From positions 60,574,001 through 60,638,000 of the forward strand of contig NC_134470.1 of NCBI RefSeq assembly GCF_964194025.1: a DNA stretch of 64,000 bases, written 5' to 3'. The notes under the pieces are model-generated. The model saw only the letters and a list, made by a program, of their open reading frames with translations, was not told where the DNA came from and did not search any database. How positions within the stretch are numbered: position 1 is the first letter of the stretch; each line of letters opens with the position of its first letter. The stretch comes from Convolutriloba macropyga (lineage: Eukaryota). Of this stretch, positions 1 through 20,358 are shown piece by piece. Made by a program: the position numbers and the translations under genes.

Positions 1-3000
1 ATACATCCCCACATTAAAATTAACACCTTTGATGTAGTAAGGTATACAAAACCTACAGATGAACAAATAGACGAAAAGTGAGTTCACATTTTGGTTAATT
101 ATTAGAGAAAATAATGGGTCTTATGTCTTAGACATGTTGAATAGTGAACTTGAGACTAGAATGCAGGAGCAAGAAATGAATCAATCTGTTTGGAGTATTC
201 AAACGTTTATCAAAAAAAATTTGTATATACACCGGTTTTATCCTGCTGGAGGTTGTACTACAAAGTTACCATTCACATCTAGATATATACTTAATATACA
301 TAAGACTGACAATAAATGTTTACAATGGTGTTTCATTGCTTATATACATCCTGCTAAAGACCATACCAATAGAGTTAGTAATTATAATAAACCTGAATAT
401 CATAGTGAGATAAAATTGCCGAGGATACCACATCCCTACAGATATAATTATTTACAGTAAATACAAGAGTTAAACAAAGATCAAGTATTATTTGATGAAA
501 TTAATCTAAATAAAAAACTATTAAAAAACTATTAATCCCGTATTAATAAATCATAATGATCCTAAACGATGTAATACATTATAGTGGGATAATCATTATT
601 TCCTATGTAAAGATGTATTATTTTTATTAAGGTCGTCTAATCATAATTATTACCCATGTATAAAATGTTGTGTGTCATTTCGAACTGAAAAGGCATTAAA
701 TAAACATTTAGAATTGTGGGATAGTATTGGAAGAAGAACAGTTCATAATGATGGTTATCTAAAGTTTGATTATAAGAACAGAGTACCACTTGCTATGTAT
801 TATGATTTTGAATGTATAAAAAAACAGAAAACATCTTCCTATTGCTTCTGGGATATATATTAAAAGTGACTATCCTGATATTTTAGAAGATAATTATGAA
901 AATTACTGTGGTAAAGACATAGTTGATTGGTTTATAAGTCGGATGAGTTATTATAATAAACTATTTAAAGAGATATTTAGTAGAAATATTCCATTGAAAG
1001 AAGATAGTATTGCCTCGTTAAATAGTAGTTGTTATTATTGTAATGAGGAAATGGGAGAGGATATTGTTAGAGATCATGATCATCTAAATGGTAAATTGAG
1101 AGGATATGCTCACAATAAATGTAACCTTCAAGTTAAGAATAATTTTGTACCAAAATATGCATTTAATTGTACTAATTATGATAACCACCTATTTATAACT
1201 AAACTAGTAAAGAAGGTTAGACTTAGAGTATTGACTAAAACTGGCGATGTTTGTATTGATATGGGATATGCTAAAGCATTAGATATGTCTAGGTTCTTCC
1301 ACCTAGTTAGATTAGATGCTATAAGTAAAACATTGAGTGATAAAAATGGGTAACATTAAACGAATTTGAGTTAGAGAGACGAAAAAGTATATTTCAGTAT
1401 GAGTGGTTAGATAATATAGGTAAACCTAGTACTACAGAACTGCCTCCTAAAGAAGCATTCTATTCAAAGTTGAAAAAGAGTGGTATTACAGATAAAGAAT
1501 ATCAGCAGGCAATAGATTGTTGGAATAAGACTAGATGTAAGACAATTATAAATTATATGCTGTTATATCTTAAAACTGATATGTTTTTTTATCAGTTGAT
1601 CTATTTGAAAAGTTTAGAGATAAGTGTTTAGAATATTATGAAGTAGATCCTTGTTACACATATTCTACTCCTGGATTAACTTGATTTTTTGGGTTGAAAT
1701 ATACTAATGTTAGACTTAAATATCAGAAAGCAAATACTGTTAAAAGCTATGCTACAATACAACGTGGTATTAGAGGTGGTATAGCTTCAGTATTAGGCCA
1801 ATGTCATTTAAAATTTAAAAAAAAAAGAAATATATCCTGAGTATACAGGGAAAAAGAATTATTTAAAATTTTTAGACTTCAACTCATTTTATGCTTCTTC
1901 TATGACACAAGCTTTACCTACTGGTGAGATTAGTGTTTGTGATAATCCAGTATACACTAGATCTAGCTCTAACACAGGTTATATAAATATACCATTGATA
2001 TAAAGTGTAATGATGAGTTGAAATAGAAAACAAAGAAATATTCATTCTTTCCTGACAAGACTAAGAGTGTTATTGATCATTTTACAAATTATCAAAATGA
2101 AAATATAAAGAAAAGATATAAACCAAATGAGAAGTTGTTGATAAAGTAAACAGATAAGGAAGACTTTGTGATTGATGGAGAGATGTTAGATTGGTATTTG
2201 GATAATGGTTTAAGATTGGAAGATATTACAATAAAGCAAAATTTAGAGTAATGTAAAGATGAATTTTTAAAATTTCATATGGAGTTTAATATTCAGAAAA
2301 GAAAAGAAGCTAAAGCTAAGGGAGATAAATTTGTAGATGTATTCTTTAATTTAATGAATAATGCCTTTTATGGAAAAACATTAGAGAATAAATATAATAG
2401 ATAAGATGTAGAGTTAGTTTTTGATGTAGATAGATATATTAAATTAGTGAAAAATTTTAGTTTTAAATGTGCTGTATAGCTTGATGATGATCTGGTGGCT
2501 GTACGTAAAAGAAGAGGTAATGTTAAGTTAGATAAGTTTAAATAATTGGTTTTTTTTTATTAGAGAAAGCTAAACCGTTTATGTATAAAGCTATATATGA
2601 ATTTTTTGAGAGAGAGTTAGATTGTAGTTATTATTATACAGATACTGATAGGATATGTATAAATATTAATGTTCCTTTAGGTATTGATATAGAAACTGAA
2701 ATGAATAATATAAGCGGCATAATACATAAATCAGAGTTAGGTAAAATGAAAGATGAAATACCGAACGATACTATTATAGAAGCTTGTTTCCTTAAAGCTA
2801 AAGCATGTTGTTTTACTACAGTTAAAGGAGAAGCAGAAAAGAAGTTAAAAGCAATAACTAAGGCTACTATTAAAAACCAAATTAATGTCGAAGATTTTAA
2901 AAATGTTATATATGAAGGTAAAACTAAGTATGTAACTAATTATAGTATTGATAGTAATAGGCATCATTTAGAAACTAAGGAACAGTATAAGATAGCTATA

Positions 3001-3060
3001 GATCCATTTGATGATAAAGGTATTAGAGACAGTAATAGTGAATTTTGGGTTTTATCAATG
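1..3060 (+). pseudogene. Decayed protein-primed family B DNA polymerase (Polinton/Maverick/adintovirus-type pPolB)
   Basis: Collinear motifs across frameshifted/stop-broken ORFs: NIHKTDNKCLQWC (vOTU-like, ~290-330), C2H2-like CIKC..H (~655-710), ExoI YYDFEC (~800), RDHDHLNGKLRGYAHNKCNL (EndoVII/HNH-like, ~1070-1130), ExoII NCTNYDNHL, Pol motif A LDFNSFYASSM (~1872-1905), motif B LMNNAFYGKT (~2350-2380), motif C YYYTDTD (~2630), LGKMKDE. The 5' end runs off the window. Confidence 0.9.
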
Positions 3061-3841
3061 AGGTTGCTTCGCAGATTATTAAATTATTTTTTCTGAATCA
3101 AGTAAAAATAACAAGAAAAAAATAAATTAGAGTAAATATCAGTCAAAATATGGTAAATATGATAAATGGGAAAATGAGTATTTTGTATATGGTTGGGTCC
3201 GCTCACCAGCACGGATAAGCCCGTATACACATTACTACTTGGAGTTATGTACGGGAGAGAGCTGGTGAAATTGCTGTTTGTTTTTGTGATAGGATACACA
3301 GCTTGCTGATCATGGTCATTCAAAACATGACAGGCTTTTGCAAATTTGAAACGACTTAACTGGAAGAGTTATTGCATACTTTAGCCAACTTGAGACGGAA
3401 GATTTTTACGTGCTCATTATCAGGCCAATGTCCGAAAAGACAAATTTCAATAAATTTTGAGTTCTGTAGAAACAAAATCAATTTGAGCATAAAATTAGAT
3501 TAAAACTTCATTGCCCAAATTTTACTAGTAGATACTTGAAACCAAATTCAAAAGCTTAATTGCTCTTGTGTACAGTGATATGGGTAATAATTAATGTTTA
3601 GTTAGGCTTTCTTTAATTTCTGTAAAATTATTCTGTATCCGTGGGAAAAGAGTAGTTTTTCGCAAATTTGAAATAAAATAGTCTAGTCAAACTCGTTTCC
3701 ACACACGCTTACAATTCTAATCCTAAAATATGGCTCTTGAAAAATCCCGACAAAATCAATGAGTATGTATTTACTCGATTTTTTGGACATTGGCCACGTA
3801 ATGATTTTGATCTACTAATCATGTTCAATTTTTTTGAACAG

Positions 3842-5471: not shown

Positions 5472-6814
5472 TGAAGAACTTGAAAAACATGGGTGGGGAG
5501 ATTCCCTAATCAAATCCCAACAATTTGTAGATACTTGAATATTAAAAAAAGAGAGAACTAGAGGAGTGGTAACTTGGCAAGCCTATTATCCTATATAACA
5601 GAGAGGGTTATACCAGGCCATTCTGTTACTCCTAAGATCCAGATTGGAGGCAGCAGTTTTTTTTAAAACAGTAATGGTAAAGTTGGATTCAGAGTTCTCT
5701 AGCCTCAACTATGAGCTAAGTGTATGGAAAAAAGGAAATAATTATAAAATAGGTGGTACTATGATCAAGAAGTATACCAAGTTCTCAATGCAATAAAATT
5801 ATATTGCGAGATCAATCGGTGGCCCAAACGACTACTAAAACTGAAGCTGAAGCTATGTTCGTCGTAGTTCACTCCACAACCCAACCAGACGAGTATCAAC
5901 CACTTGAAAAAGGAACAAAAGATCTATTGCCCGTCAGGTGCTTCAGGGTTTTTAAAGACAGTGTTACGTGTTTACTTGGTTCACCTATCCATACCACATG
6001 GGTTAGTCTTACTCGCCAAATCTTTCACGAGCAGGCAACCCTGTCCTCAGAGTGGCTTCAATTATTCAGTCTCCAAAGGAGCCCGCCGATTGATACTCTT
6101 GAAAACTGTCGTCTTGAAGGTGTTTGCAGTCCCTCTCTTGATGTCCAAGTCCCGGGAGATCCTAACTTAACCTAATAGTCATTGATCTCTGTAAAAACAC
6201 CTATGTTCCTAACTAGCTACACCGAGTCTATCGAATAAACCTGAGAAGTTAGATAATTCGAACTAAAGAAAGACTATTACCGCTGAGAATAACAAAGGTT
6301 GTATAAAAAGCAAGTAAATTTAGAATCAAGAAATTGGTTTAAGAAAAAGACTCAAAACTTAGCCGTATTCTGGCTTATCTTTTCACATCGTGAGATAATT
6401 GAGTCCTACGGGCTTAATTTAGCCTAAACATTTGAGAAAATACCTTTTAAGGGCCAAAAATGTGGCCTGATTTCTAGGGGTTTTTTTTATATCTGTACGT
6501 ATTATGTAAGGTCTGAAAAATGCGTTCCCGGTCATTTGTTGATGCCTAAGTCTTCGAATAATAATTTTAGTACACTTTCAAGGTGTTTCGTTTACTAAGA
6601 TTATCAGGTCCTAATATCTTTGTTTTGAATTTGGTACTAACTTAGTTTGAGAGAATCAAACCATAACTCAAATCTTGATATGTACAAACAACTCTATATA
6701 TCTCTTTGGTCTATTTTCGGTTTCGGTTTATACAGTTCATTGGGATAATTTAAAGTTTAGTTCAAATTCTTTTAACTTTCCTTGTCCTTTAGTTCCTAAT
6801 TTTCAATTTCTACA
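5472..6814 (-). repeat. 3' LTR of the Gypsy element (~1343 bp)
   Basis: On + it begins TGAAGAACTTGAAAA and ends TTTTCAATTTCTACA (TG...CA, short inverted termini). Aligns with 17967-19492 apart from a ~180 bp segment it lacks. Confidence 0.85.
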
Positions 6815-6826
6815 CTTCCCCCTTGG
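6815..6826 (-). promoter_or_regulatory. Polypurine tract of the Gypsy element
   Basis: CTTCCCCCTTGG on + (CCAAGGGGGAAG on -) directly abutting the LTR. Confidence 0.75.
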
Positions 6827-6959
6827 ACTCAACTATTCTCCTTAACAGCTTTAGTTCTTCACAAGTCTTCAGCGCTAATTAAGCAAATGGGTTATGTGAA
6901 GAATACAAGGATACAAGGGTAAAAGAGATTACAAGGAAGGTACAATTCTCATTAAAATG

Positions 6960-9004
6960 CTGAAGACTCTAATTTGTTTTGCTCTCTGACTCTACAAAGT
7001 AACTCTGAGTGCTGTGTTGGTTGGTCGTCCTCTGTTTTGTCATATATTTTGCTCATGTGAGGTCGTGCCTTCGCTTTGAAGCAAAATTTTTCCATTTCCA
7101 GAGTAAATTGTTGAGATAAAAGTGATAGCCCATAAAAACATTCCTAAGAAGCCTACCACATTATTAGCAGTTCCTCCAACTGTGTTTTGTCTTGGTCGCT
7201 CTTGGCTGCTCCGATCAAAATCTTCTACCAAATTTTTGATCTTTGCGGTGTCTGTTCCAAATGGTGGTTTGATTGTAGTTCGACTTTGACTTGTTCCATT
7301 ACTTTTCTTTGGTAGACCATTGTGGTACTTAAGGAACTCAGGTCGTGGTTTTCTGGTATCGACGACGTGAACGCCTCCTCAATTAGAGGGTTGAGCCCTG
7401 CAGTCATAACCAGCCCGGCTTCGTTCTGATTATTGTCTGTTGAAGGGCGGAGAACCAATTCTACATTAGGTATTTCAGTTGTCGCGTTACAAGGAGGTTG
7501 TATGATGCACCTTCGGCTTCCTCTCAGTCTACGGCTCTTTAGGGTGTTATCTGAGATTTCAGTGATTCAATATTTTGTGGTTGCTGACAAAATAAAATAT
7601 TTTGAAAGCGCTGAATAGGTTGAAGTTGGCAAACTTCGCAGGTGTATGATATCAAACTTTAAGGTCTGTAAGACAGCTGCTTTGTGACCAAAAAATAGAC
7701 TGACCAGACAACCAGCTTGTTGGTTTTTAGTCATTGAGAAGGGTTGTTCAAAGAGTTTTAGTCGTTTTGAACCCTGACAAGAGAGAATCTGTGCTTCATC
7801 AACTTCAGCAAAGTTAATCGTAGCTTCGTAGCTTTAGGTACAAGCACTAACGCCGTAGTTGAATTTGCATTAGGTTGCGGAAGGAACACTCCTTTAAAGA
7901 CTTTGTGGATAGAATTTGACTTAACATCGGGATTTAGATTTTTAAGAGGAGCCCCTTGTCCCCAATAAAAACTTTTCCAAGTAGCTCAAGTTCATAGTAG
8001 AGACTAACATACTGGAGTGGTATTGGCATCGTTTGTGATGGAATCGGAGAGGTTGTAGAATTCGTTGCAATTTGTCTGGTTCAATGAGTTTTGATGGCAT
8101 TCTCCCGTTTGACATCTCCTGGAAAGCCTCCCGAAATTTGTTATTGAATTTCTTGAGTTCATACTTAAAAGATTGCACTTCCAAAAGGTGAGACACTAAC
8201 GCGAAGGAGACGTTATTGATCACGCTTTGCGCTTTGAGGAAAAAGGTGATTACTTCGCTCCTCTTGTGATTGCAGACTTGGGCCTGCTGTACTTGTTCCA
8301 TATCGTATTCCAGGTTGTTAATGGCTTCCATTACGGTTCCGAAGTTCCCAGCTGTATAGTTCAAGATAGTTTTCATTTGTTCCTGTTGTTTTAGGTTTTC
8401 GTTGCCCAGGATGTGTATTGTGTCATCGGTGTGGCTCGATAAATGATTTAGCTTGTAGTTCATGTGGTTCAAGTGAGTTGCAATACGTCGCATTTTTTTC
8501 GTCTGAGCCCTGACAAAGATGAAAATGGAGAGCATTTTGCAAGCTGCTTTTTCCAATTTGGGCTCCAAAACAAAAGCGGCAGCAGCTCCAGCTGGAAGCA
8601 ACGTTATTGAGCTTCTTTTACTGTTCAAAAGCTTGGTAGAATTTGCAAAAATCTTCTCATCTCGAAGCAGCTGAGTCCTTTTGCTTCGATCTCGGAAGTA
8701 TCTTTTTGTAGCGATGTAATGAGTGTGTTCTGACTGTTTTCCAGGATGCTGTTTACTTTTGGTTCTTGCATTTTTCCCACTGCGTCTCTCTTCACACGCG
8801 AACTTCCATCTCTTTGAGGATTTTCGAAAAATGTTAAAATGCGCCGCAGTCAATGTCCAAGAGTTTAGGAAAAGGCACCGCAATTTCTATCAGTTCAATC
8901 GAATCAACTAGAGCGATTGGAGTCTGTTGGACAAACGCAATGTTTGCTCGAATTGTTACTTCTGCTAGAGTAATCCGGATAACAAGAAAAAGATAGCACT
9001 TCAT
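6960..9004 (-). pseudogene. env: env-like class I (F-type) fusion glycoprotein of the Gypsy element
   Basis: ATG at 9004 followed by a hydrophobic signal-like stretch (MKCYLFLL). ORF 7942-8883 contains basic site SKR|S, hydrophobic ITLLPAGAAAAFVL, long heptad-like helices and SNGRMPSKLIEPDKLQRIL. Cys-containing segment at ~7650-7900, TM-like VVGFLGMFLWAITFISTI at ~7105-7160. Lies between integrase and PPT. Confidence 0.75.
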
Positions 9005-9760
9005 AAAAATTTTGCCAAAGTTAGAGTAAATTGCACTTTTGGTGACAATTTTTTCATACTTTCATAACTAAGGTTTCAGTTTTTTTAAGAAAAAAAAACC
9101 CGTGCAATTATTATTTAGAACTAGGTTGTGTATTCAAATTGGTTCCAACGCCCGAACATTTTTTTTGTGCATTGCTTTTTTGCTTTGCTCTAAATTTCTT
9201 TTTTTTGTCTGGAAACCCTAATCGATCTGAAAAAATTCAAGTGAGTGTCACACATAGTCTGGGTTCTGTTTCGACGAGTGTTGCTATTCTTAAGAGCTAT
9301 TTAAAGTCATAATCAAGACTTTTCCAAAGTTTTGATCGCTTTTTTTGTGTGTTTAGCGATTGGCCTTGGAAGAAGAAAATTTTATTAGTCCATAGTAATT
9401 CTCTCTATCACAATACATTGATAAAAAATTAATTTGGTAACGTTTCAAAGTTTTGTGTCGAGTTTGTTCAGTAGGTTCTTCAAGTGCTCTATGATTTTTG
9501 TTCTCATTCGTCATTGATTCCGTATCTTTTGGGGAATGGCTTAGCCCACTTGGGTCGTCCCTCCGTGTTAGAGAGTAGGCTTGGGCTCGGTGTTTCAAAA
9601 TTGAGTGTCATTGGTGTCCGTTTCAACCCTTTCGCTTTATGAGGTCTATGGATGCCCTTGAACTCTGTATTGAAAGTCTTATTTGGAGTAGCGCTTTGTT
9701 GATCCGGTGGGTCTGTTTGCTGGGCACTAGGGGGAGAGGGTGCCAGGTTGGCTTGTCATG

Positions 9761-9802
<42 letters not shown>
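9761..9802. repeat. (CT)n/(GA)n microsatellite within the integrase C-terminal region
   Basis: About 20 CT units, read as RERERE on the minus strand. Confidence 0.95.
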
Positions 9803-9807
<5 letters not shown>

Positions 9808-10680
9808 GTCAGTTCAGTTGCCTGTACTTCCTCGACGTCCTGCATCTGGCAGTTTGCCTCTCGTCTGATCGCAGAAGTTTTTGCTTGTTCCTCATGAACT
9901 CTTCTTGGTGACTTAGGTAGGAGTAAATCGATTGGAAATTTGCACTTTTGTCCGTAAACTAAAGAGAAGAGATGTGCCGTGTTGTTCTGTGCACTGTTGT
10001 GTTGTAAACGAAGCTCAGAAATGGAAGCATCTCGTCCCAAGTGTTTGGATTTCCCGCACAGTATTTCTAAATTACATCAGCAATGACTCGGTTGTGTCGC
10101 TCAACCATGTCATTGCCTTGAGGGTGGTAAGGCGAGGTCTTTGTTTCATCCATTCCGAACAGCTTGCAAGAGTTCCAAGATAAGTTCACTGCAAAAGTTT
10201 GAGTTTGGTCAGGGTGAATAGAACCTAGGGCACCAAACAGAAGAACCCAAATTTCCACGATTGCTCTTGCCACGGCCTCGGCAGTTGTGTTTTGCAATGT
10301 TGTGCTGACTACAAATTTGGCGAAGTAGTTCGTGAGTACGAAAATATAACTGTACACTAATTTTTTTTAAATACTGGCCCCAGGATGTATGCAGCCGTTT
10401 TGTTGAAACGGACTCCTACGTTGATTGTTTACAAGGGTGCTTTCCGTTTATTCCCAACTGTAGATTGCGACTGACACGTCAAACAGTTTTCACATTTCCT
10501 CTCGATGTCTTTTCTTATATTTGGCCACCAGAAACGTTGCCTAGCTCTGTCGAATGTCTTCTGAAAAGCGAATTGTCCCCCACTTATCTTAGAGTCGTGT
10601 AGTTTTTCTAGAACTTTTTCCCGTAGACTTGTGGGAGCCACGAACTGTCTGACATTAGAGTTTGTACCCTCAATAAACCA
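9803..10680 (-). pseudogene. Gypsy integrase (zinc-binding domain and DDE core)
   Basis: LHD..GGQF..KT..RARQRFWWPNIRKDIERKCENCLTCQ; YIFVLTNYFAKF; IHPDQ; TSPYHPQGNDMVERHNR; NTAHLFSLVYG. Confidence 0.9.
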
Positions 10681-11707
10681 CTTTTGTTAGAGAACTCCCT
10701 CTGCAATTTCTAGTTGTTCCCATACACACCAGATAGCCAGCGCATCCTCTCCGGCTGCAATAGCTGCCTTTTCTTTCACGTTAAGTTTGCCAAGGGACGT
10801 TTGCGTGCCGTTTTTGTCAGCATTGGCCCATTGAAAAACGAGTGTAATTGCTAGGTCTTGCGCCTGATGTTCTTTAGCCGCTTCTCTGCCCTCCTCTAGA
10901 ATAATTTCCATTGATGTCTCGTCGATGTTGAGAAGGTTTGTTTCATGTTTGCACGATTGGTCCGGATTTGTGGTCATTGGAACTCTTCCAAAATTGCTAT
11001 GGCTGCAGTAGTTGCTTCCATCGTCAGTTTCAGGAACTCCTATCTCGGTTTCGTTGAAATGGACAGTTTCTGTGGTCATCTGGGTCCCACCAAACTCGGT
11101 TTGGCCGGAGTAATCATTCTCCTCGTCGGTCTACCAGTCCGATCCAGTTTTCATCTGGATGCCCGTTCCTCCTTCACAGCATCATAGAGCTTCCGGAAGC
11201 TCAGAATGTAGAGAATTTCATATTCGTCGTCATTGTCGCTGTCCTGCTGCTGAGTTTTATATTGCTGGGGTAATTCGGAGTATCACTCTGTCTTCTGAGG
11301 TCCAAAATCTGAATCCTTATCCGTTTCAACCCATTCTGTAGTCTCATCTTCGAACTCATGTCTGGTGAACGTTAGAGTTTTTTGCCATTTGAGTTTCGGG
11401 GGTCAGTGCGTGGGTTAGGAACAAGGTGGCCGAGTGGTTAAGGCTTTGGATTGCTATTCCAATACGGTTCCGTGCGTGAGTAATTTTTACATCTGTTGAT
11501 GAACCTGGGTGGGGTTCTGGTGAAGTCACCATTTGGATATGCCCGAGTGCGTCACTTAAATTGTCAGCTGGTTGGTTGTCGCCAAACATCTCTTTCTTTT
11601 CCTCTTCAGTCAATTCGGGAGCCTGGCTACACTCTCGTGAAAGTTCATCTGCGTTTCCATTTTTCCCACCAGGACAATGAACCACCTGGAAGTCAAACTC
11701 TTGAAGC

Positions 11708-14700
11708 TTTTGTAACATTCGAAAGATCATTCCATCGTTATTTTGCCTGAACAGGCATTGAAGTGAAGCGTGGTCTGTTCTCAACACAAACTTTGTCCCC
11801 TAGGTATGGTTTGTATGACTTCATTGCCTGGATTACAGCTAGTGCCTCCCGCTTTGTTGTTGAAATTTTACATTCGGCTGGTGATAGCACTCTGCTTGCA
11901 AACGCTACCCGATACGCAATACCATCTATGACATTCGAGAGTACTGCGCTCAAACTGTTGTCAGTCGCGTCTGTATCTAGCACAAATGGTGAGCTGTAGT
12001 CTGGATGCGACAAAACCGTGCTCTTGATAATTGCTGTTTTCAGGTTCTCGAAAGCAGCTTGACAGTCCAGTGAATCTCCGGCTTTTTTAGGTGATCTCAT
12101 GTAGTGCTTTTGCTATCCCGGCAAAGTCCTTTACGAATCGACGATAGTAACTGCAGAATCCAATGAATGATCTCAGTTCTGTAATATTTTCTGGTCTTTT
12201 CCACTCTTTTGAGGGCTCTGATTTTTCCGACATCGGGTGAAAATCCTTCGGCACTGAGTTTTTACCTCAAGTACGTAACTGAGTTTTGGTATAATTTACA
12301 CTTCTGTGGCTGAAGATTCAGGTTTGCTTTCCGTAGGGCTTCAACAGCAAGTCGGAGATATTCTTCGTGTTCTTCCTCTGACTTGCTGAAGAATAGAACA
12401 ACGTCCAGAAATATGAGAACAAAACTGAAAAGGTACTCGTTAAAGATTGCTGTCATCAATCGTTGAATTGCACCTGGGGCATTTCACAGTCCAATTTGTA
12501 GTCGGAGGAACTCGTAATGACCACCGTCAGGGGTAACGAATGCAGGTTTTGTATCGCTGAATCTGCTAGTGGGACCTGCCAGTATCCGGAGGCTAGATCC
12601 AGGCTCGAGAAAACTTTAGCTCCGTGAAGATGATCAAGGATTAGATCTATTCTGGGTAATGGGAAAGCATCTTTTCTAGTTACGTCGTTGAGTTTTCTAA
12701 AGTCTACACATATTCTACTGCTGCCGTCTTTCTTTGTTTTAGTACAATTGGCGCTCTGTACGGGCTTTTAGATGGCCGGATGATATTCGTGAAGAGCATA
12801 TCATCTACTTCTTGTTTCACAACTTCTATCTTCCCGGGTGCTAATCGATAGGGAGAAAAATAAATTGGGTCAGCGTCTCCAGTATCAATCTCGTGCTCCA
12901 ACAAATGTGTCTGACCCAACTCGGCATCGCTTAGAGCTAACAGATCTCGAAAAGTGGCAACTGTACTCATTATCTTGAGTCCAATTTCGTGGTCTGTCGG
13001 GTCCGAATTTACCAGGTTGCAAATTTATTCCGCCTCGTTCTCTGATGCTGGCATGGGACAATTGTTTGTTCCTGTTTCTCCAGCTCCGTGGGATTGAAAC
13101 TCACTCGCCGCCTCGCCCACCTAGAGTTGGCTGCTTTTTCTGTTTTCCAGAGAAATGTCAAATTGAATGCACTGCTCTCTTTGCCCATCATTAGTTTTTG
13201 TAACATTCGAAAGATCATTCCATCGTTATTTTGCCTGAACAGGCATTGAAGTGAAGCGTGGTCTGTTCTCAACACAAACTTTGTCCCCTAGGTATGGTTT
13301 GTATGACTTCATTGCTTGGATTACAGCTAGTTAGCACTCTGCTTGCAAACGCCACCCGATACGCAATACCATCTATGACATTCGAGAGTACTGCGCTCAA
13401 ACTGTTGTCAGTCGCGTCTGTATCTAGCACAAATGGTGAGCTGTAGTCTGGATGCGGCAAAACCGTGCTCTCGATAATTGCTGTTTTCAGGTTCTCGAAA
13501 GCAGCTTGACAGCCCAGTGAATATCCGGCTCTTTTTTGTGATCTCATGTAGTGCTTTTGCTATCCCGGCAAAGTCCTTTACGAATCGACGATAGTAACTG
13601 CAGAATCCAATGAATGATCTCCGTTCTGTAATATTTTCTGGTCTTTTCCACTCTTTTGAGGGCTCTGATTTTTCCGACATCGGGTGAAAATCTTTCGGCA
13701 CTGAGTTTTTACCTCAAGTACGTAACTGAGTTTTGGTATAATTTGCACTTCTGTGGCTGAAGATTCAGGTTTGCTTTCCGTAGGGCTTCAACAGCAAGTC
13801 GGAGATATTCTTCGTATTCTTCCTCTGACTTGCTGAAGAATAGAACATCGTCCAGAAATATGAGAACAAAACTGAAAAGGTACTCGTTAAAGATTGCTGT
13901 CATCAATCGTTGAATTGCACCTGGGGCATTTCACAGTCCAATTTGTAGTCGGAGGAACTCGTAATGACCACCGTCAGGGGTAACGAATGCAGGTTTTGTA
14001 TCGCTGAATCTGCTAGTGGGACCTGCCAGTATCCGGAGGCTAGATCCAGGCTCGAGAAAACTTCAGCTCCGTGAAGATGATCAAGGATTAGATCGATTCT
14101 GGGTAATGGGAAAGCATCTTTTCTAGTTACCTCGTTGAGTTTTCTAAAGTCTACACATATTCTACGGCTGCCGTCTTTCTTTGTTTAAGTACAATTGTCG
14201 CTCTGTACGGGCTTTTAGATGGCCGGATGATATTCGTGGAGAGCATATCATCTACTTCTTGTTTCACTACTGCTATCTTCCCGGGTGCTAATCGATAGGG
14301 AGAAAAATAAATTGGGTCAGCGTCTCCAGTATCAATCTCGTGCTCCAACAAATGTGTCTGACCCAACTCGGCATCGCTTAGAGCTAACAGATCTCGAAAA
14401 GTGGCAACTGTACTCATTATCTTGAGTCCAATTTCGTGGTCTGTCGGGTCCGATTTTACCAGGTTGCAAATTTATTCCGCCTCGTTCTCTGATGCTGGCA
14501 TGGGACAATTGTTTGTTCCTGTTTCTCCAGCTCCGTGGGATTGAAACTCACTCTCCGCCTCGCACACCTAGAGTTGGCCGCTTTTTCTGTTTTCCAGAGA
14601 AATGTCAAATTGAATGCACTGCTTTCTTTGCCCATCATTAGTTTTTGTAACATTCGAAAGATCATTCCATCGTTATTTTGCCTGAACAGGCATTGAAGTG

Positions 14701-16085
14701 AAGCGTGGTCTGTTCTCAACACAAACTTTGTCCCCTAGGTATGGTTTGTATGACTTCATTGCTTGGATTACAGCTAGTTAGCACTCTGCTTGCAAACGCC
14801 ACCCGATACGCAATACCATCTATGACATTCGAGAGTACTGCGCTCAAACTGTTGTCAGTCGCGTCTGTATCTAGCACAAATGGTGAGCTGTAGTCTGGAT
14901 GCGACAAAACCGTGCTCTCGATAATTGCTGTTTTCAGGTTCTCGAAAGCAGCTTGACAGCCCAGTGAATATCCGGCTCTTTTTTGTGATCTCATGTAGTG
15001 CTTTTGCTATCCCGGCAAAGTCCTTTACGAATCGACGATAGTAGCTGCAGAATCCAATGAATGATCTCAGTTCTGTAATATTTTCTGGTCTTTTCCACTC
15101 TTTCAGGGCTCTGATTTTTCCGACATCGGGTGAAAATCCTTCAGCACTGAGTTTTTACCTCAAGTACGTAACTGAGTTTTGGTATAATTTGCACTTTTGT
15201 GGCTGAAGTTCAGGTTTGCTTTCCGTAGGGCTTCAACAGCAAGTCGGAGATATTCTTCGTGTTCTTTCTCTGACTTGCTGAAGAATAGAACAACGTCCAG
15301 AAATATGAGAACAAAACTGAAAAGGTACTCGTTAAAGATTGCTGTCATCAATCGTTGAATTGCACCTGGGGCATTTCACAATCCAATTTGTAGTCGGAGA
15401 ACTCGTAATGACCACCGTCAGGGGTAACGAATGCGGGTTTTGTATCGCTGAATCTGCTAGTGGGACCTGCCAGTATCCGGAGGCTAGATCCAGGCTCGAG
15501 AAAACTTCAGCTCCGTGAAGATGATCAAGGATTTGATCGATTCTGGGTAATGGGAAAGCATCTTTTCTAGTTACCTCGTTGAGTTTTCTAAAGTCTACAC
15601 ATATTCTACTGCTGCCGTCTTTCTTTGTTTAAGTACAATTGGCGCTCTGTACGGGCTTTTAGATGGCCGGATGATATTCGTGGAGAGCATATCATCTACT
15701 TCTTGTTTCACAACCGCTATCTTCCCGGGTGCTAATCGATAGGGAGAAAATTAAATTGGGTCAGCGTCTCCAGTATCAATCTCGTGCTCCAACAAATGTG
15801 TCTGAACCAACTCTGCATCGTTTAGAGCGAATAGATCTCGAAAAGTGGCAACTGTTCTCATTATCTTGAGTCCAGATTTGTGGTCTGTCGGGTCCGATTT
15901 TAACAGGTTGCAAATTTATTCCGCCTCGTCCTCTGATGTTGGCATGGGACAATTGTTTGTTCCTGTTTCTCCAGGTCCGTGGGATTGAAACTCTCTCTCC
16001 GCCTCGCAGACCTAGACTTGGCCGCGTTTTCTGTTTTCCAGAGAAATGTCAAATTGACTGTACTGCTTTCTTTGCCTATCATTAG
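11708..16085 (-). pseudogene. Gypsy RT-RNase H block present as three tandem copies (11708-13194, 13195-14641, 14642-16085)
   Basis: Each unit has [42 protein letters not shown](D/V)[44 protein letters not shown]. Period ~1447 bp, units near-identical. Confidence 0.95.
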
Positions 16086-16400
16086 TTGCCTTGACTGAAA
16101 GTCGATCGACATTTGATTTTACTGCAAAATAGGTGTTCATAAGATCAGCGGTAGGTCTGTGTCCGGTGTGACAAGAAATTCCGTCTGAACGACCATTCGC
16201 AGACCGAATGCAAGAATTCCGACGAACATTCCTAGAATGCGGAACGGGTCGTTTGTTGCAGATAAGACTGTATTGTGGAAGTCAGACAGTTACATTGGTG
16301 GTGAATAAAGTTTGTATATTTGCTCAGATATAATATTCATTTTACTGCCTGTGTCGGGCAGTGCCCTGTGCATCTTTACGTTTGGTTTTGCACCAACTTG
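16086..16400 (-). pseudogene. Gypsy aspartic protease
   Basis: HRALPDTGSKMNIISE (DTG active-site motif, ~16345-16360). Confidence 0.8.
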
Positions 16401-16479
16401 AACAGTAGATTTAAAAATGAAACTAGCATTCTCGATAATTGCACTGTTAAAGGTTTCATGTCGTTTTGCTCTCCGCAGT

Positions 16480-17496
16480 ATCATCTCAACAACTGGCTGT
16501 GTTTCGACGTTTCCATCGTCTTGTCTTCTTGGAGTAATGGTTCGTATCGGGCACCAACTTGCAGTGACACCAGTTCTGAAAATGATAGCATTGTACGTTG
16601 CTTTTCCGTTCAACTCTGTTAGGGCTGCGCGACGCTCTAGGTGCAGGATCAAGTTCTGTTAAAAACCGGCTCTGTGTATCTAAAAATCTCTCCATGATTT
16701 GCTTGTGACGTTCTTGCTGTTTCAACATTTTGTTGAAACCCCTGATCTGATTTTCCATTAAGTCGTCACCTAGTCCCATGCCCACATTCGTCGATAAATC
16801 TCGGATTTAGGCTTTTTCCATTTTCTTTGTAGTCGCCTTGCGTCCAACGTACGTGTCCTGTCCTTCTTGGTTGTTATCGGGCGTTTTCAACGTTAGCAAT
16901 TGCTTCGTGGTTTTTTTGAGCTATGGTTTTTTTGAGAGGGCTATGGTTTTTTTGAGGGGATGCATTGAAAGTGTCCTGATTTTTTTGGGAGGATATATCA
17001 TATCTCATTGTCCAACAATCTATAAATAAATGCGTCCCTATTTGCTTCTTGCCTTCCGGCTGCACTCAAACGGGCGTTTGCTGCTTCGACCCGTTTTTCG
17101 GACTCTTTGTGAGAACTCTTGTATGCTCTCCCCTTCATTTTGCTGGAAGTTCTTAGGCTCTGTACTGGCACTCCTTGCATTAGGAAAGTCTCAAATTTGG
17201 TTGTTGAGGGCATTGAGCACACGCTCGATGGTTGGTGCTGGTTTTCCTTGTACTCGATTGAAGTATTGATTCGGGAGGTTGTAGTTCTCGTCAAGTGCGT
17301 AGTTGTTCAAGCAAGTGGGGAGGACTGCTCGCTGCCTGGTGTCACCCCAATTGTTTGCCTAAGACACTGCTTCGAAATGGCGTATACATCACTCGAATTA
17401 CTCGAAGCCTTTGCTCGGATAACGTAAGGGAGTTAGAGGTGGAGCAGCCACTACGATTTGCTGCTGGGTGTTGTTGTTGTTGTTTGGGTTTTCCAT
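16480..17496 (-). pseudogene. gag: Gypsy gag
   Basis: ATG at 17496: MENPNNNNNTQQQ...RHFEAVS*ANNWGDTRQRAVLPTCLNNYALD (Gypsy-like capsid N-terminus). Frameshifted CCHC knuckle CYHxQ...TASWCP at ~16550-16590. Confidence 0.75.
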
Positions 17497-17950
17497 TTAA
17501 ATTGTGTTCACGTTAGGAAGGTTAGTTGATTTCTTTCTCAAAAAAGATGTTTACTTTAATGACTTTGTTTTTTCTCTTTCAAGAACCCCCCGGTCAGTGA
17601 TTTTTTTTTACTTTTACAAAAAAGACAAAGAAACAGAAGCTAGAAACTATAAATTAACAATTTGGATTCGCAGTATTTCAAACGTTAAAATTTCGTTTTA
17701 CTTTCAGAGGAATTGTCTTTAAATTAGAAGTCAGTTCTCTTTTTTATGGTTCTGATGTAAGCTATTTTGATTATGATCGGTCTTTCTTCTCTATTGTTTC
17801 GTAAGCAATCTCTTCCCTTTTTGTTCAAATTTTTTTTGAATTTTAACTGACGGTACGTTTGCCTTGCTCGCGTTCTTTGTTTTATATTTAAGTATTCTCC
17901 TTTTCGCTACCTTTTACAGTAATGCCTGTGACTTTTTCTAACAATAAATA

Positions 17951-17965
17951 CTTCTGTGGTTGCCA
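17951..17965 (-). promoter_or_regulatory. Primer-binding site of the Gypsy element (tRNA-Arg-like)
   Basis: On the minus strand the LTR ends ...CCACA, then T, then TGGCAACCACAGAAG, which is close to the complement of a ...CTTCGTGGTTG-CCA tRNA-Arg 3' end (recalled, not searched). Confidence 0.65.
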
Positions 17966-17966
17966 A

Positions 17967-19492
17967 TGTGGAATTTGAAAAACTGTGGTTGGGAGATTCC
18001 CTAATCAAATTCCAGCATTTTGTCGATACTTGAAAATTAAAAAAAACAGAGAACTTGAGTAGTGGTAACTTTGCAATCCTATTATCTTATGTATCAGAGA
18101 GGGTTATACCAGGCGATTCGGTTACTCCTAAGATTCAGATTGGAGGCAGCAGTATTTTTAAAACAGTAATGATAAAGTTGGATTCAGAGTTTTCTAGCCT
18201 CAACTAAGAGCTAAGTGTATGTAAAAAGAAAAACAATTATCAAATAGTTGGTACCGTGAGTGAGAAGTATACCAAATTCTCAATGAAACTAAGTTATACT
18301 ACGAGATCAATCTGTGACCCCAAAGACTACTCAAACTGAAAAAGATGAAGCGAAATTTGTCGTAGTTCACTCCACAACCCAACCACAGTAGTGTCAACTA
18401 CTTGAAAAAAGAACAAAAGTTCTATTGCCCATCAGGTAATTCAGGAATACTGTAGACAGTGTTACGTATCTGCTTGGTTCACCCATTCATACCACATGGG
18501 TTAGTCTTACTCGCCAAGTCATCCACGAGCAGGCAACCCTACCCCCCGAGTGGCTTCACTTTTTCGTTCTCCAAAGGAGCGCAGCGATTGATACTCTTAA
18601 AAACTCTCGTCTTGAAGGTTTCTGCTGTCACTCTCTTAATGTCCAAGTCCCGGGAGATCTTAAATTAACCTAATAGTCATTGATCTCTTTAAAACCACCT
18701 ATGTTCCTAAGTAGCTATAATATGTTTTGAATTAAAGCCAACTCTAACTTAAGAAAATACTAGACTTATAAATTAAAGATTGCAAAGTTACCACAGACCT
18801 TATTCCTAACTGAATCAAAGCTAGAGTCAAACCAAATGTATTCTAAAACAATTCTCCTAACTATTTTCTATTTTTCTATTCGATCTCTGAGTCTACACCG
18901 ACTCTATCGAATAATCCTAAGAACTTAGAAAAATCAAACTAATGAAAGATTATTACCGATGAGAAAAACAAAGGTTGTATAACAAGCAAGTAAATTTAGA
19001 ATCAGGGAATTGGGTTTAAAAAAGGCTAAAAAATTAGCCGTATTTATACTAGCTTATCTTTTTGTATCTTGAGAAAATTGAGTCCTGCGGGCTTAATTAA
19101 GCCTTATAATTTGAGAAAACACCTTTGAAGGGCTCTGAATGTGGCCTGATTTCTATGGGTTTTGTATATCCGTACATAAAATGTAAGGTCCGAAAAACGC
19201 TTTCCCGGACATTTGTTCATGCCTAAATATTCGTGTAATAATTTTAGTATACTTCCAAGGTGTTTCGTTTACTAAGATTATCAGGCCCGCATAATATCTT
19301 TGGTTTAAATTTAGTAACAACTTAGTTTGAGAGAATCAAATAAAATTTCTAATCGTGATCTGTACAAATAACTATGTTTCTCTTTGGTCTAATTTCGGTT
19401 TTGGTTTATAGGGTTCATCGAGAAAAAACAATAGTAAGTTCAAATTCCTCTAACTTTCGTTTTCTTTTAATTCTTAAGTTTCAATTTCTAAA
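17967..19492 (-). repeat. 5' LTR of the Gypsy element, also bordered by a second PPT (shared LTR)
   Basis: Starts TGTGGAATTTGAAAA and ends TTTCAATTTCTAAA. Homologous to 5472-6814 with many substitutions and an extra ~180 bp (~18718-18895). Confidence 0.85.
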
Positions 19493-20320
19493 CTTACCTC
19501 TCGGACTCAACTATTTTTCTTAATACTTATAATTCATCACAAGTCTTTAGCGCCAATTAGGTAAGTGGATTATGTGAGGAAACAAAACTAGAAGGGTATA
19601 AGAGATTACAAGGAAGTCACAACTCTCATTAAATTGCGGACGACTCTAGTTTGTTCTGCGCTTTGACTCAACAAAGCAATTCTGTTTGCTGTGTTGGGTG
19701 GTTGTCGTCCTCTGTTTTTTTTTATAGATTTCGCTCATATGAGGTCGTGCCCTCCGTTTGAAGCATAATTTTTTCCATTTCCAGAGTAAAATTGATGGGA
19801 TTGTGAAAAAAGCGATAACACATAAAAACAGTCCTAAGAAGCCTACCACATTATTAGCAGTTCCTCCAGCTGTGTTTTGCCTTGGCCGCCCATGAATGCT
19901 CCGATTCAAATCTCGTACGAAATTTTTGATCGTTGGGGTGTCTGTTCCAAACGGTGGTTTGCTTGTAGTTCGACTTTGACTTGTTCCATTACTTTTCTTT
20001 GGTAGTGCATTGTGGTACTTAGGGAACTCAGGTCGTGGTTTTCTGGTATCGGCGAGGTGAACGCTTCCTCAAGTAGAGGGTTGAGCCCTGCAGTCATAAC
20101 CAGCCCGGCTTCGTTCTGACAATTGTCTGTTGAGGGGCGGAGAACCAAGCCTCCATTAGATATTTCAGTTGTCCCGTTACAAGGAGGTTGTATGATGCAA
20201 CTTCGGCATCCGCTCAGTCTACGGCTCTTTAGGGTGTTATCTGTGATTTCAGTTATTCATTATTTTGTGATTGCTGACGAAATTAAAAATTTTGAATGCG
20301 CTGAATAGGTTGCGGTTGGA
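19493..20320 (-). mobile_element. Truncated second tandem Gypsy copy: degenerate PPT and env 3' end
   Basis: Collinear with 6815-7630, including TM and tail VVGFLGLFLCVIAFFTIPSILLWKWKKLCFKRR. Homology stops abruptly near 20320. Confidence 0.85.
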
Positions 20321-20358
20321 ATTATTGGAAGCTAAATTTTTATTAAGTTGATATATTC

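Follow-up and report, generated by a model that had tools for sequence, protein, structure and literature searches.

The window analysed here, a 64-kb stretch of DNA, carries on its minus strand an old copy of a Ty3/gypsy LTR element (Table 1). Along that strand the order is the truncated env tail of an upstream copy with a polypurine tract (PPT), an LTR, a decayed primer-binding site (PBS), gag-pol, env, a PPT, and an LTR.

Table 1. Features of the window element (positions counted from the first nucleotide of the window)
Feature	Position	Strand	Remark
3' LTR	5472..6814	-	begins TGTAG
Polypurine tract	6815..6824	-	
env pseudogene, predicted F-type class I fusion protein	6952..9004	-	72.5% amino acid identity to unbroken copy L004
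TM and basic cytoplasmic tail	7068..7159	-	split by frameshifts; TM 7159-7109, basic tail 7106-7068
Cys cluster	near 7509-7489	-	
G-x-x-P-x-x-L-I-x-P-x-x-L motif	8106-8068	-	
Degenerate cleavage site and fusion peptide	8560..8622	-	R-x-[K/R]-R at the same place in unbroken copies
SKRS	8622-8611	-	followed by Ala/Gly-rich peptide, 8610-8560
Signal-like start	9004-8963	-	
Decayed gag-pol	9507..17490	-	gag with CCHC, protease, RT, RNase H, bridge, integrase
Decayed primer-binding site	17948..17965	-	in young copies complementary to host tRNA-Arg(TCG) 3' end
5' LTR, common to the upstream truncated copy	17967..19492	-	K2P 0.16 to 3' LTR
env 3' end of upstream truncated tandem copy	19632..20337	-	residues ~461-695; own PPT

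The env pseudogene and its surroundings

The sequence-only reading had placed a third gene between the integrase and the PPT, and this is indeed where it lies. The gene is no open reading frame, though; it is interrupted by about four stops and 10 frameshifts, its features are spread over three frames, and the longest open piece encodes 314 amino acids. It ends at about 6952 and not at 6960. The signal-like start, the Ala/Gly-rich peptide, the G-x-x-P-x-x-L-I-x-P-x-x-L motif, the cysteine region, the TM, and the basic tail were all found on the minus strand, within the stretch which that reading gave. The proposed SKR|S cleavage-like site is borne out in part, as SKRS precedes the hydrophobic peptide, but a furin consensus (R-x-x-R) is missing and the cut falls one residue later in unbroken copies. 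An acceptor-like site before the ATG is also missing from the window env, the 314-aa piece has no Pfam match, and the other window env pieces match no Pfam envelope family. In a frameshift-aware comparison 490 of 676 aligned residues (72.5%) are identical to those of a natural unbroken copy of 695 amino acids, hereafter L004. This similarity, together with the at least 130 related places in the genome described below, excludes on sequence grounds that the features of the window env arose by chance. The window env is a pseudogene within an ordinary dead insertion and is capable of none of the entry steps proposed below.

The upstream env tail was suggested to keep a cleaner TM and cytoplasmic tail that would aid reconstruction. 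Its TM and basic tail do lie in one frame (19849-19769), but it too is frameshifted as well as truncated, and no reconstruction of env is needed because natural unbroken copies exist. Since the 5' LTR also belongs to the upstream copy, the distance between the two window LTRs was not used as an age. Tandem copies sharing an LTR recur in the family; besides the one in the window (17967-20337) they are found at L049/L050 (C16) and at L038 (C13). Within the window pol a segment of 1447 bp covering the end of the protease, the RT, and the RNase H is tandemly triplicated (~11750-16087). The three copies are 93.5-97% alike, and this is therefore a real duplication after insertion and not an assembly echo.

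The window also contains other mobile DNA. At positions 1-3096 there are remains of AT-rich coding sequence in which an endonuclease VII-like domain and what we take to be DNA-polymerase-B-like motifs can be seen, and related DNA continues upstream; this is probably a relic of the Polinton/Maverick type. Judged from translations only, a decayed BEL/Pao-like LTR element lies at 39764-43309 and a decayed LINE-like element at 55655-58040.

The only full COX1 of the assembly, on one unplaced contig, follows the invertebrate mitochondrial code (TGA=Trp, AGA=Ser, ATA=Met, AAA=Lys), and is 92% and 75% identical to the COX1 of two acoels and at most 68% identical to that of named non-acoels; the lineage of its best match is Xenacoelomorpha, Acoela. 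From this one contig the host is taken to be most likely an acoel. Chromosomal cox1 fragments, examined as a check on this host assignment, proved to be of algal type. These Algal-type cox1 fragments are found on a large chromosome (L066/L067, G000:C13:6184365-6189242) and are 86% identical to a non-animal COX1 and 57% to an acoel COX1. They have an intron-like interruption that presumably bears a LAGLIDADG-like motif, and either were acquired from an alga living in the host or eaten by it or are the product of a chimeric assembly.

A Ty3/gypsy family with three subfamilies

At least 130 places in the genome match the 314-aa env piece, a lower bound as 126 of 624 candidates were scored. Over the full length of the window env, no other copy exceeds 83% identity to it. 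The flanking DNA was examined for 14 copies; these had been picked for long open frames and are thus biased towards young ones. The sequence-only reading had asked for intact copies and held that absence of the gene from other family members would speak against it. In all 14 copies pol was found upstream of env, with env between the integrase and the PPT inside the LTRs, and seven of them have an unbroken env of 693-697 amino acids from ATG to stop. Six of these seven full-length proteins display R-x-[K/R]-R at about residue 130, the cut directly preceding the hydrophobic peptide.

The two LTRs of a copy differ by a K2P distance of 0.0025-0.021 in each of eight copies; they are about 1.55-1.6 kb long and start with TGTAG. 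A target duplication of 5 bp is present in five of six copies checked. The PBS is complementary to the 3' end of host tRNA-Arg(TCG) genes. A tandem array of such genes with a spacing of 413 bp (L074, G000:C1:20114001-20118000) is the likely source of the primer for the env family. Gag and pol are encoded in one frame, comprising a PNMA-like gag, a CCHC motif, protease, RT, RNase H, and integrase. The layout LTR-PBS-gag-pol-env-PPT-LTR with the order PR-RT-RH-IN is that of the Metaviridae (Ty3/gypsy). The best match of pol among solved structures is Ty3 (360 bits), followed by the next family at 199, foamy virus at 117, and a gammaretroviral RT at 105 bits; by these scores the RT is nearer to Ty3/gypsy than to retroviruses or caulimoviruses.

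The env genes fall into three subfamilies, A, B, and C, that are 33-47% identical to one another. They form one clade in the env tree (SH-aLRT 100), a quick tree of 39 long rows from which fragments were left out. The RT phylogeny that had been called for, with 120 of 125 rows, likewise groups the three subfamilies as one clade; this tree carries neither named reference clades nor the elements of Chary and Hayashi. Subfamilies A and C (L033, L050) have an acidic low-complexity spacer of 100-200 amino acids between the RNase H and the mini domain described below, while B is without it.

By sequence comparison, the family is thus a recently multiplying Ty3/gypsy LTR element of which the window holds an old copy. 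Current activity is not inferred from this, as none of 13 copies with an examined internal region has a single unbroken gag-pol frame and the dN/dS of env within subfamilies does not differ from 1.

Similarity of Env to F-type fusion proteins

Insect errantivirus Env and baculovirus F have a common architecture. The natural unbroken env genes of the present family encode a signal peptide, a furin motif, a hydrophobic fusion peptide, heptad helices, and a TM, and the subfamilies have a common cysteine spacing and 5-7 N-glycosylation sites. The L004 protein alone gave no match to a Pfam envelope family, only weak coiled-coil matches, and a single-sequence search of the PDB gave no match. A representative protein library contains 546 of its relatives at E≤0.001; a word-index protein search found only two close ones. 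P0006 and P0008, the nearest outside relatives, show an identity of about 28-31%.

The Pfam family Baculo_F (PF12259) matches 14 of the 103 members of an alignment of natural sequences and 10 of 41 proteins scanned. The subfamily-C protein P0168, 95-97% identical to both pieces of the subfamily-C copy L050, scores 32.7 bits, above the curated cut-off of 24.1, and a subfamily-B copy falls just below it with 22.2 bits. A profile built from the 103 sequences matches PDB entries 9w4c and 9w4d, named only "fusion protein," with an E-value of 1.5e-11, and then metapneumovirus F (4.5e-4).

The AlphaFold monomer model of L004 has a pLDDT of 80. When used for a fold search of the PDB, the matches listed are paramyxo- and pneumovirus F throughout, the best with an E-value of 5e-8. 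Among 36 matches at E≤0.001 in BFVD, granulovirus and NPV F are found at 1e-15 to 1e-12, but the top places are taken by glycoproteins of chu-like viruses and a protein from an abalone herpesvirus; lispivirus glycoproteins are also included. A VIA comparison with prefusion RSV F gave a Z of 9.3 and an rmsd of 7.7 over 393 residues, and one with coronavirus S2 a Z of 9.0 over 213 residues. The Foldseek TM-scores are low, 0.19-0.32 in the PDB and up to 0.47 in BFVD, and the rmsd values large. Together with the score for coronavirus S2 this means that the fold signal stems in part from the helix bundling common to class I proteins. The low TM-scores probably also reflect that a monomer was modeled in another conformation.

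The proposal that env encodes an F-type class I fusion protein therefore agrees with the fold search, the family profile, and the Baculo_F match of a sister copy; similarity to class I fusion proteins, the absence of which was to have counted against it, is found with both the natural L004 model and the profile. Since these matches are joined by the signal peptide, furin motif, fusion peptide, cysteines, N-glycosylation sites, and TM, the F-type assignment, although a prediction, is well supported. The predicted fold and the domain order resemble those of baculovirus F (PF12259) and paramyxo/pneumovirus F, with weak but significant profile matches. Unlike these, Env is encoded by a retroelement, is only 8-17% identical to them, and has no known attachment partner.

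Selection, expression, and origin

When the window lineage is compared with subfamily A, the dN/dS values obtained for env are 0.21 (0.14-0.32; 210 codons) and 0.34 (0.18-0.64; 104 codons); for another copy the value is 0.34 (0.25-0.45). The corresponding values for pol are 0.13 (RT) and 0.15 (integrase). No ratio is given between subfamilies A, B, and C, where dS is saturated. Within subfamilies, where the young copies are near-identical, the env ratios are 0.5-2.0 with wide intervals and do not differ from 1, as expected because of decay after insertion. The ratios between lineages indicate that env evolved under purifying selection; such selection does not prove extracellular infection.

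A YAG directly precedes the env ATG in 32 of 38 distinct copies, in all three subfamilies; it is mostly TTTAG and twice TTCAG. The DNA upstream of the three subfamilies is otherwise unalike around this site. For comparison, AG precedes 107 of 1823 ATGs in the 64-kb window, and TTTAG five. As the copies are related, the independent evidence amounts to about three lineages. Env of Drosophila gypsy is made from a spliced RNA, according to the available part of PMC4276936, and because of this the conserved YAG is read as a likely splice acceptor. Alternatively, it may act as an in-frame stop that protects the ATG. Visual inspection of the three leaders revealed no splice donor that stood out. Contigs of sequencing run X1, which has a second organism code and is RNA only by guess, show no leader-env joint in their subfamily A and B stretches, and one runs unspliced across the start of env; neither observation bears on expression or splicing.

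About 1,500 env-carrying Ty3/gypsy elements with F-type or gB-type env have been described across metazoans (Chary and Hayashi, eLife 2026, PMC13524379), and the kind of element found here is thus already published. The survey separates "insect" and "ancient" errantiviruses by the bridge between RNase H and integrase. A model of the subfamily B bridge (pLDDT 85.5) displays an RNase H (residues 11-127), helices (181-234), and three strands (239-263), followed by the integrase zinc finger. The predicted bridge is that of the mini-domain pattern of the "ancient errantiviruses," a call judged from the secondary structure of the model and not from superposition. The designation "errantivirus-like" in the sequence-only reading consequently holds in the operational sense of a Ty3/gypsy element with env used in the sections consulted of PMC13524379, but the resemblance is to the non-insect "ancient" group and not to the insect genus. 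Shared with the former, as described there, are the order GAG-POL-ENV, an F-type env whose product has a furin site and a fusion peptide, the RNase H and mini-domain bridge, and multiple young copies. A tRNA-Arg PBS is also recorded for annelid ENV_F elements in the same source. Unlike the "ancient errantiviruses" covered there, subfamilies A and C have the added acidic bridge spacer, and an acoel is the most likely host; the phyla surveyed do not include Xenacoelomorpha. The text and searched supplements, figure supplements excluded, contain no acoel name, and the main text does not mention splicing; echinoderms and flatworms are reported to lack an F-type env (PMC13524379).

In the insect errantiviruses gypsy, ZAM, and Idefix, env is likewise the third gene and follows the integrase, and its product has a signal peptide, a furin site, a fusion peptide, and a TM; splicing of the env RNA is likely, though only predicted, for the present family (PMC7879559, PMC4276936, as far as available). 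They differ in using Ser, Lys, or Leu tRNAs instead of Arg, and Drosophila gypsy uses a frameshift where the present family has gag and pol in one frame (same sources). The pseudo-RNase H duplicate in the bridge of genus Errantivirus is absent from the subfamily B bridge model, and while that genus has insect hosts the present element has a non-insect host.

Taken together, the window very probably contains the dead env of a single old member of a Ty3/gypsy LTR family with many copies, from what is most likely an acoel, and the predicted F-type class I protein encoded by that family likely served the entry of particles into new cells. By analogy with Drosophila gypsy and with paramyxo- and baculovirus F, gag-pol would be made as one polyprotein from full-length RNA, and Env likely from a spliced subgenomic RNA using the conserved YAG before its ATG. 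Env would enter the ER and trimerise, a furin cut would expose the fusion peptide, and refolding of the heptad helices would let the particle fuse with a neighbouring cell. In this way the element could pass from the cells that express it to stem or germ cells. As had been proposed, the ancestor may have been infectious.

An unlikely rival is that a true F-type Env no longer drives entry, or never did, and that the family multiplies intracellularly while env is carried along or used otherwise, as for particle trafficking or the blocking of rival elements. This would fit the ratios within young subfamilies, which do not differ from 1, and the mechanism of transmission outside Drosophila is stated as unknown in the consulted part of PMC13524379. 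A passenger gene would, however, soon be lost, while the dN/dS between lineages is 0.2-0.4, and subfamilies with no more than 33-47% identity have retained the furin motif, the fusion peptide, the pattern of cysteines, the TM, and the acceptor-like site.

Recent capture of env from an exogenous baculovirus, chu-like virus, or mononegavirus, or horizontal acquisition of the element from another marine animal, is considered distinctly improbable. The best structural matches are viral proteins, but they share only 8-17% identity with Env. The single deep env clade with saturated dS, the like grouping of pol, and the presence of pieces of env and pol with mostly 80-95% similarity in the sequencing run of the second organism code also argue against it.

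There is very little room for kinship with the lokiretroviruses or Odin-type retroviruses. Lokiretroviruses are reverse-transcribing elements that also have a mononegavirus-like F env, and the position downstream of pol is the same here, but they have a dual RNase H, an RT on the retrovirus side, and vertebrate hosts (PMC9040795, as far as available). The present pol is Ty3-like by its bit scores, and its modeled bridge contains a single RNase H and, in place of a second one, a mini domain of three strands, which largely rules out such an identity. That the gene belongs to the host and encodes a coiled-coil membrane protein, or that it is a chance neighbour of the element, as the missing Pfam matches of the window pieces and the weak coiled-coil matches of L004 might suggest, is refuted by its constant place within the LTRs of every copy examined and by the F-like predicted fold, and deserves virtually no credence.

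A bolder extension of the favoured reading, in which Env likely served particle entry, can be put forward only tentatively, namely that acoels hold an old enveloped Ty3/gypsy lineage of their own that diversified in place into subfamilies and is still spreading from cell to cell by means of a spliced F-type env, for instance into neoblast stem cells. No env-bearing element from an acoel or other xenacoelomorph was found in the literature searched, which took in neither journals behind a subscription nor Repbase and other repeat libraries; within it both the conserved acceptor-like site and the phylum of the likely host appear to be new. Xenacoelomorpha is a key phylum, either early-branching or allied to the deuterostomes. 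The proposed age of env-bearing Ty3/gypsy elements, before the split of the bilaterians, rests on host coverage in which Xenacoelomorpha is unsampled, according to the available part of PMC13524379. An acoel F-type family with deep diversity within one genome fills this gap, and the conserved acceptor-like site offers a precise and cheap test of gypsy-like env expression in non-insect elements. If acoels do hold an old enveloped lineage that is still spreading, it would be the first from Xenacoelomorpha and would provide a non-insect animal in which the infectivity of ancient errantiviruses could be tested.
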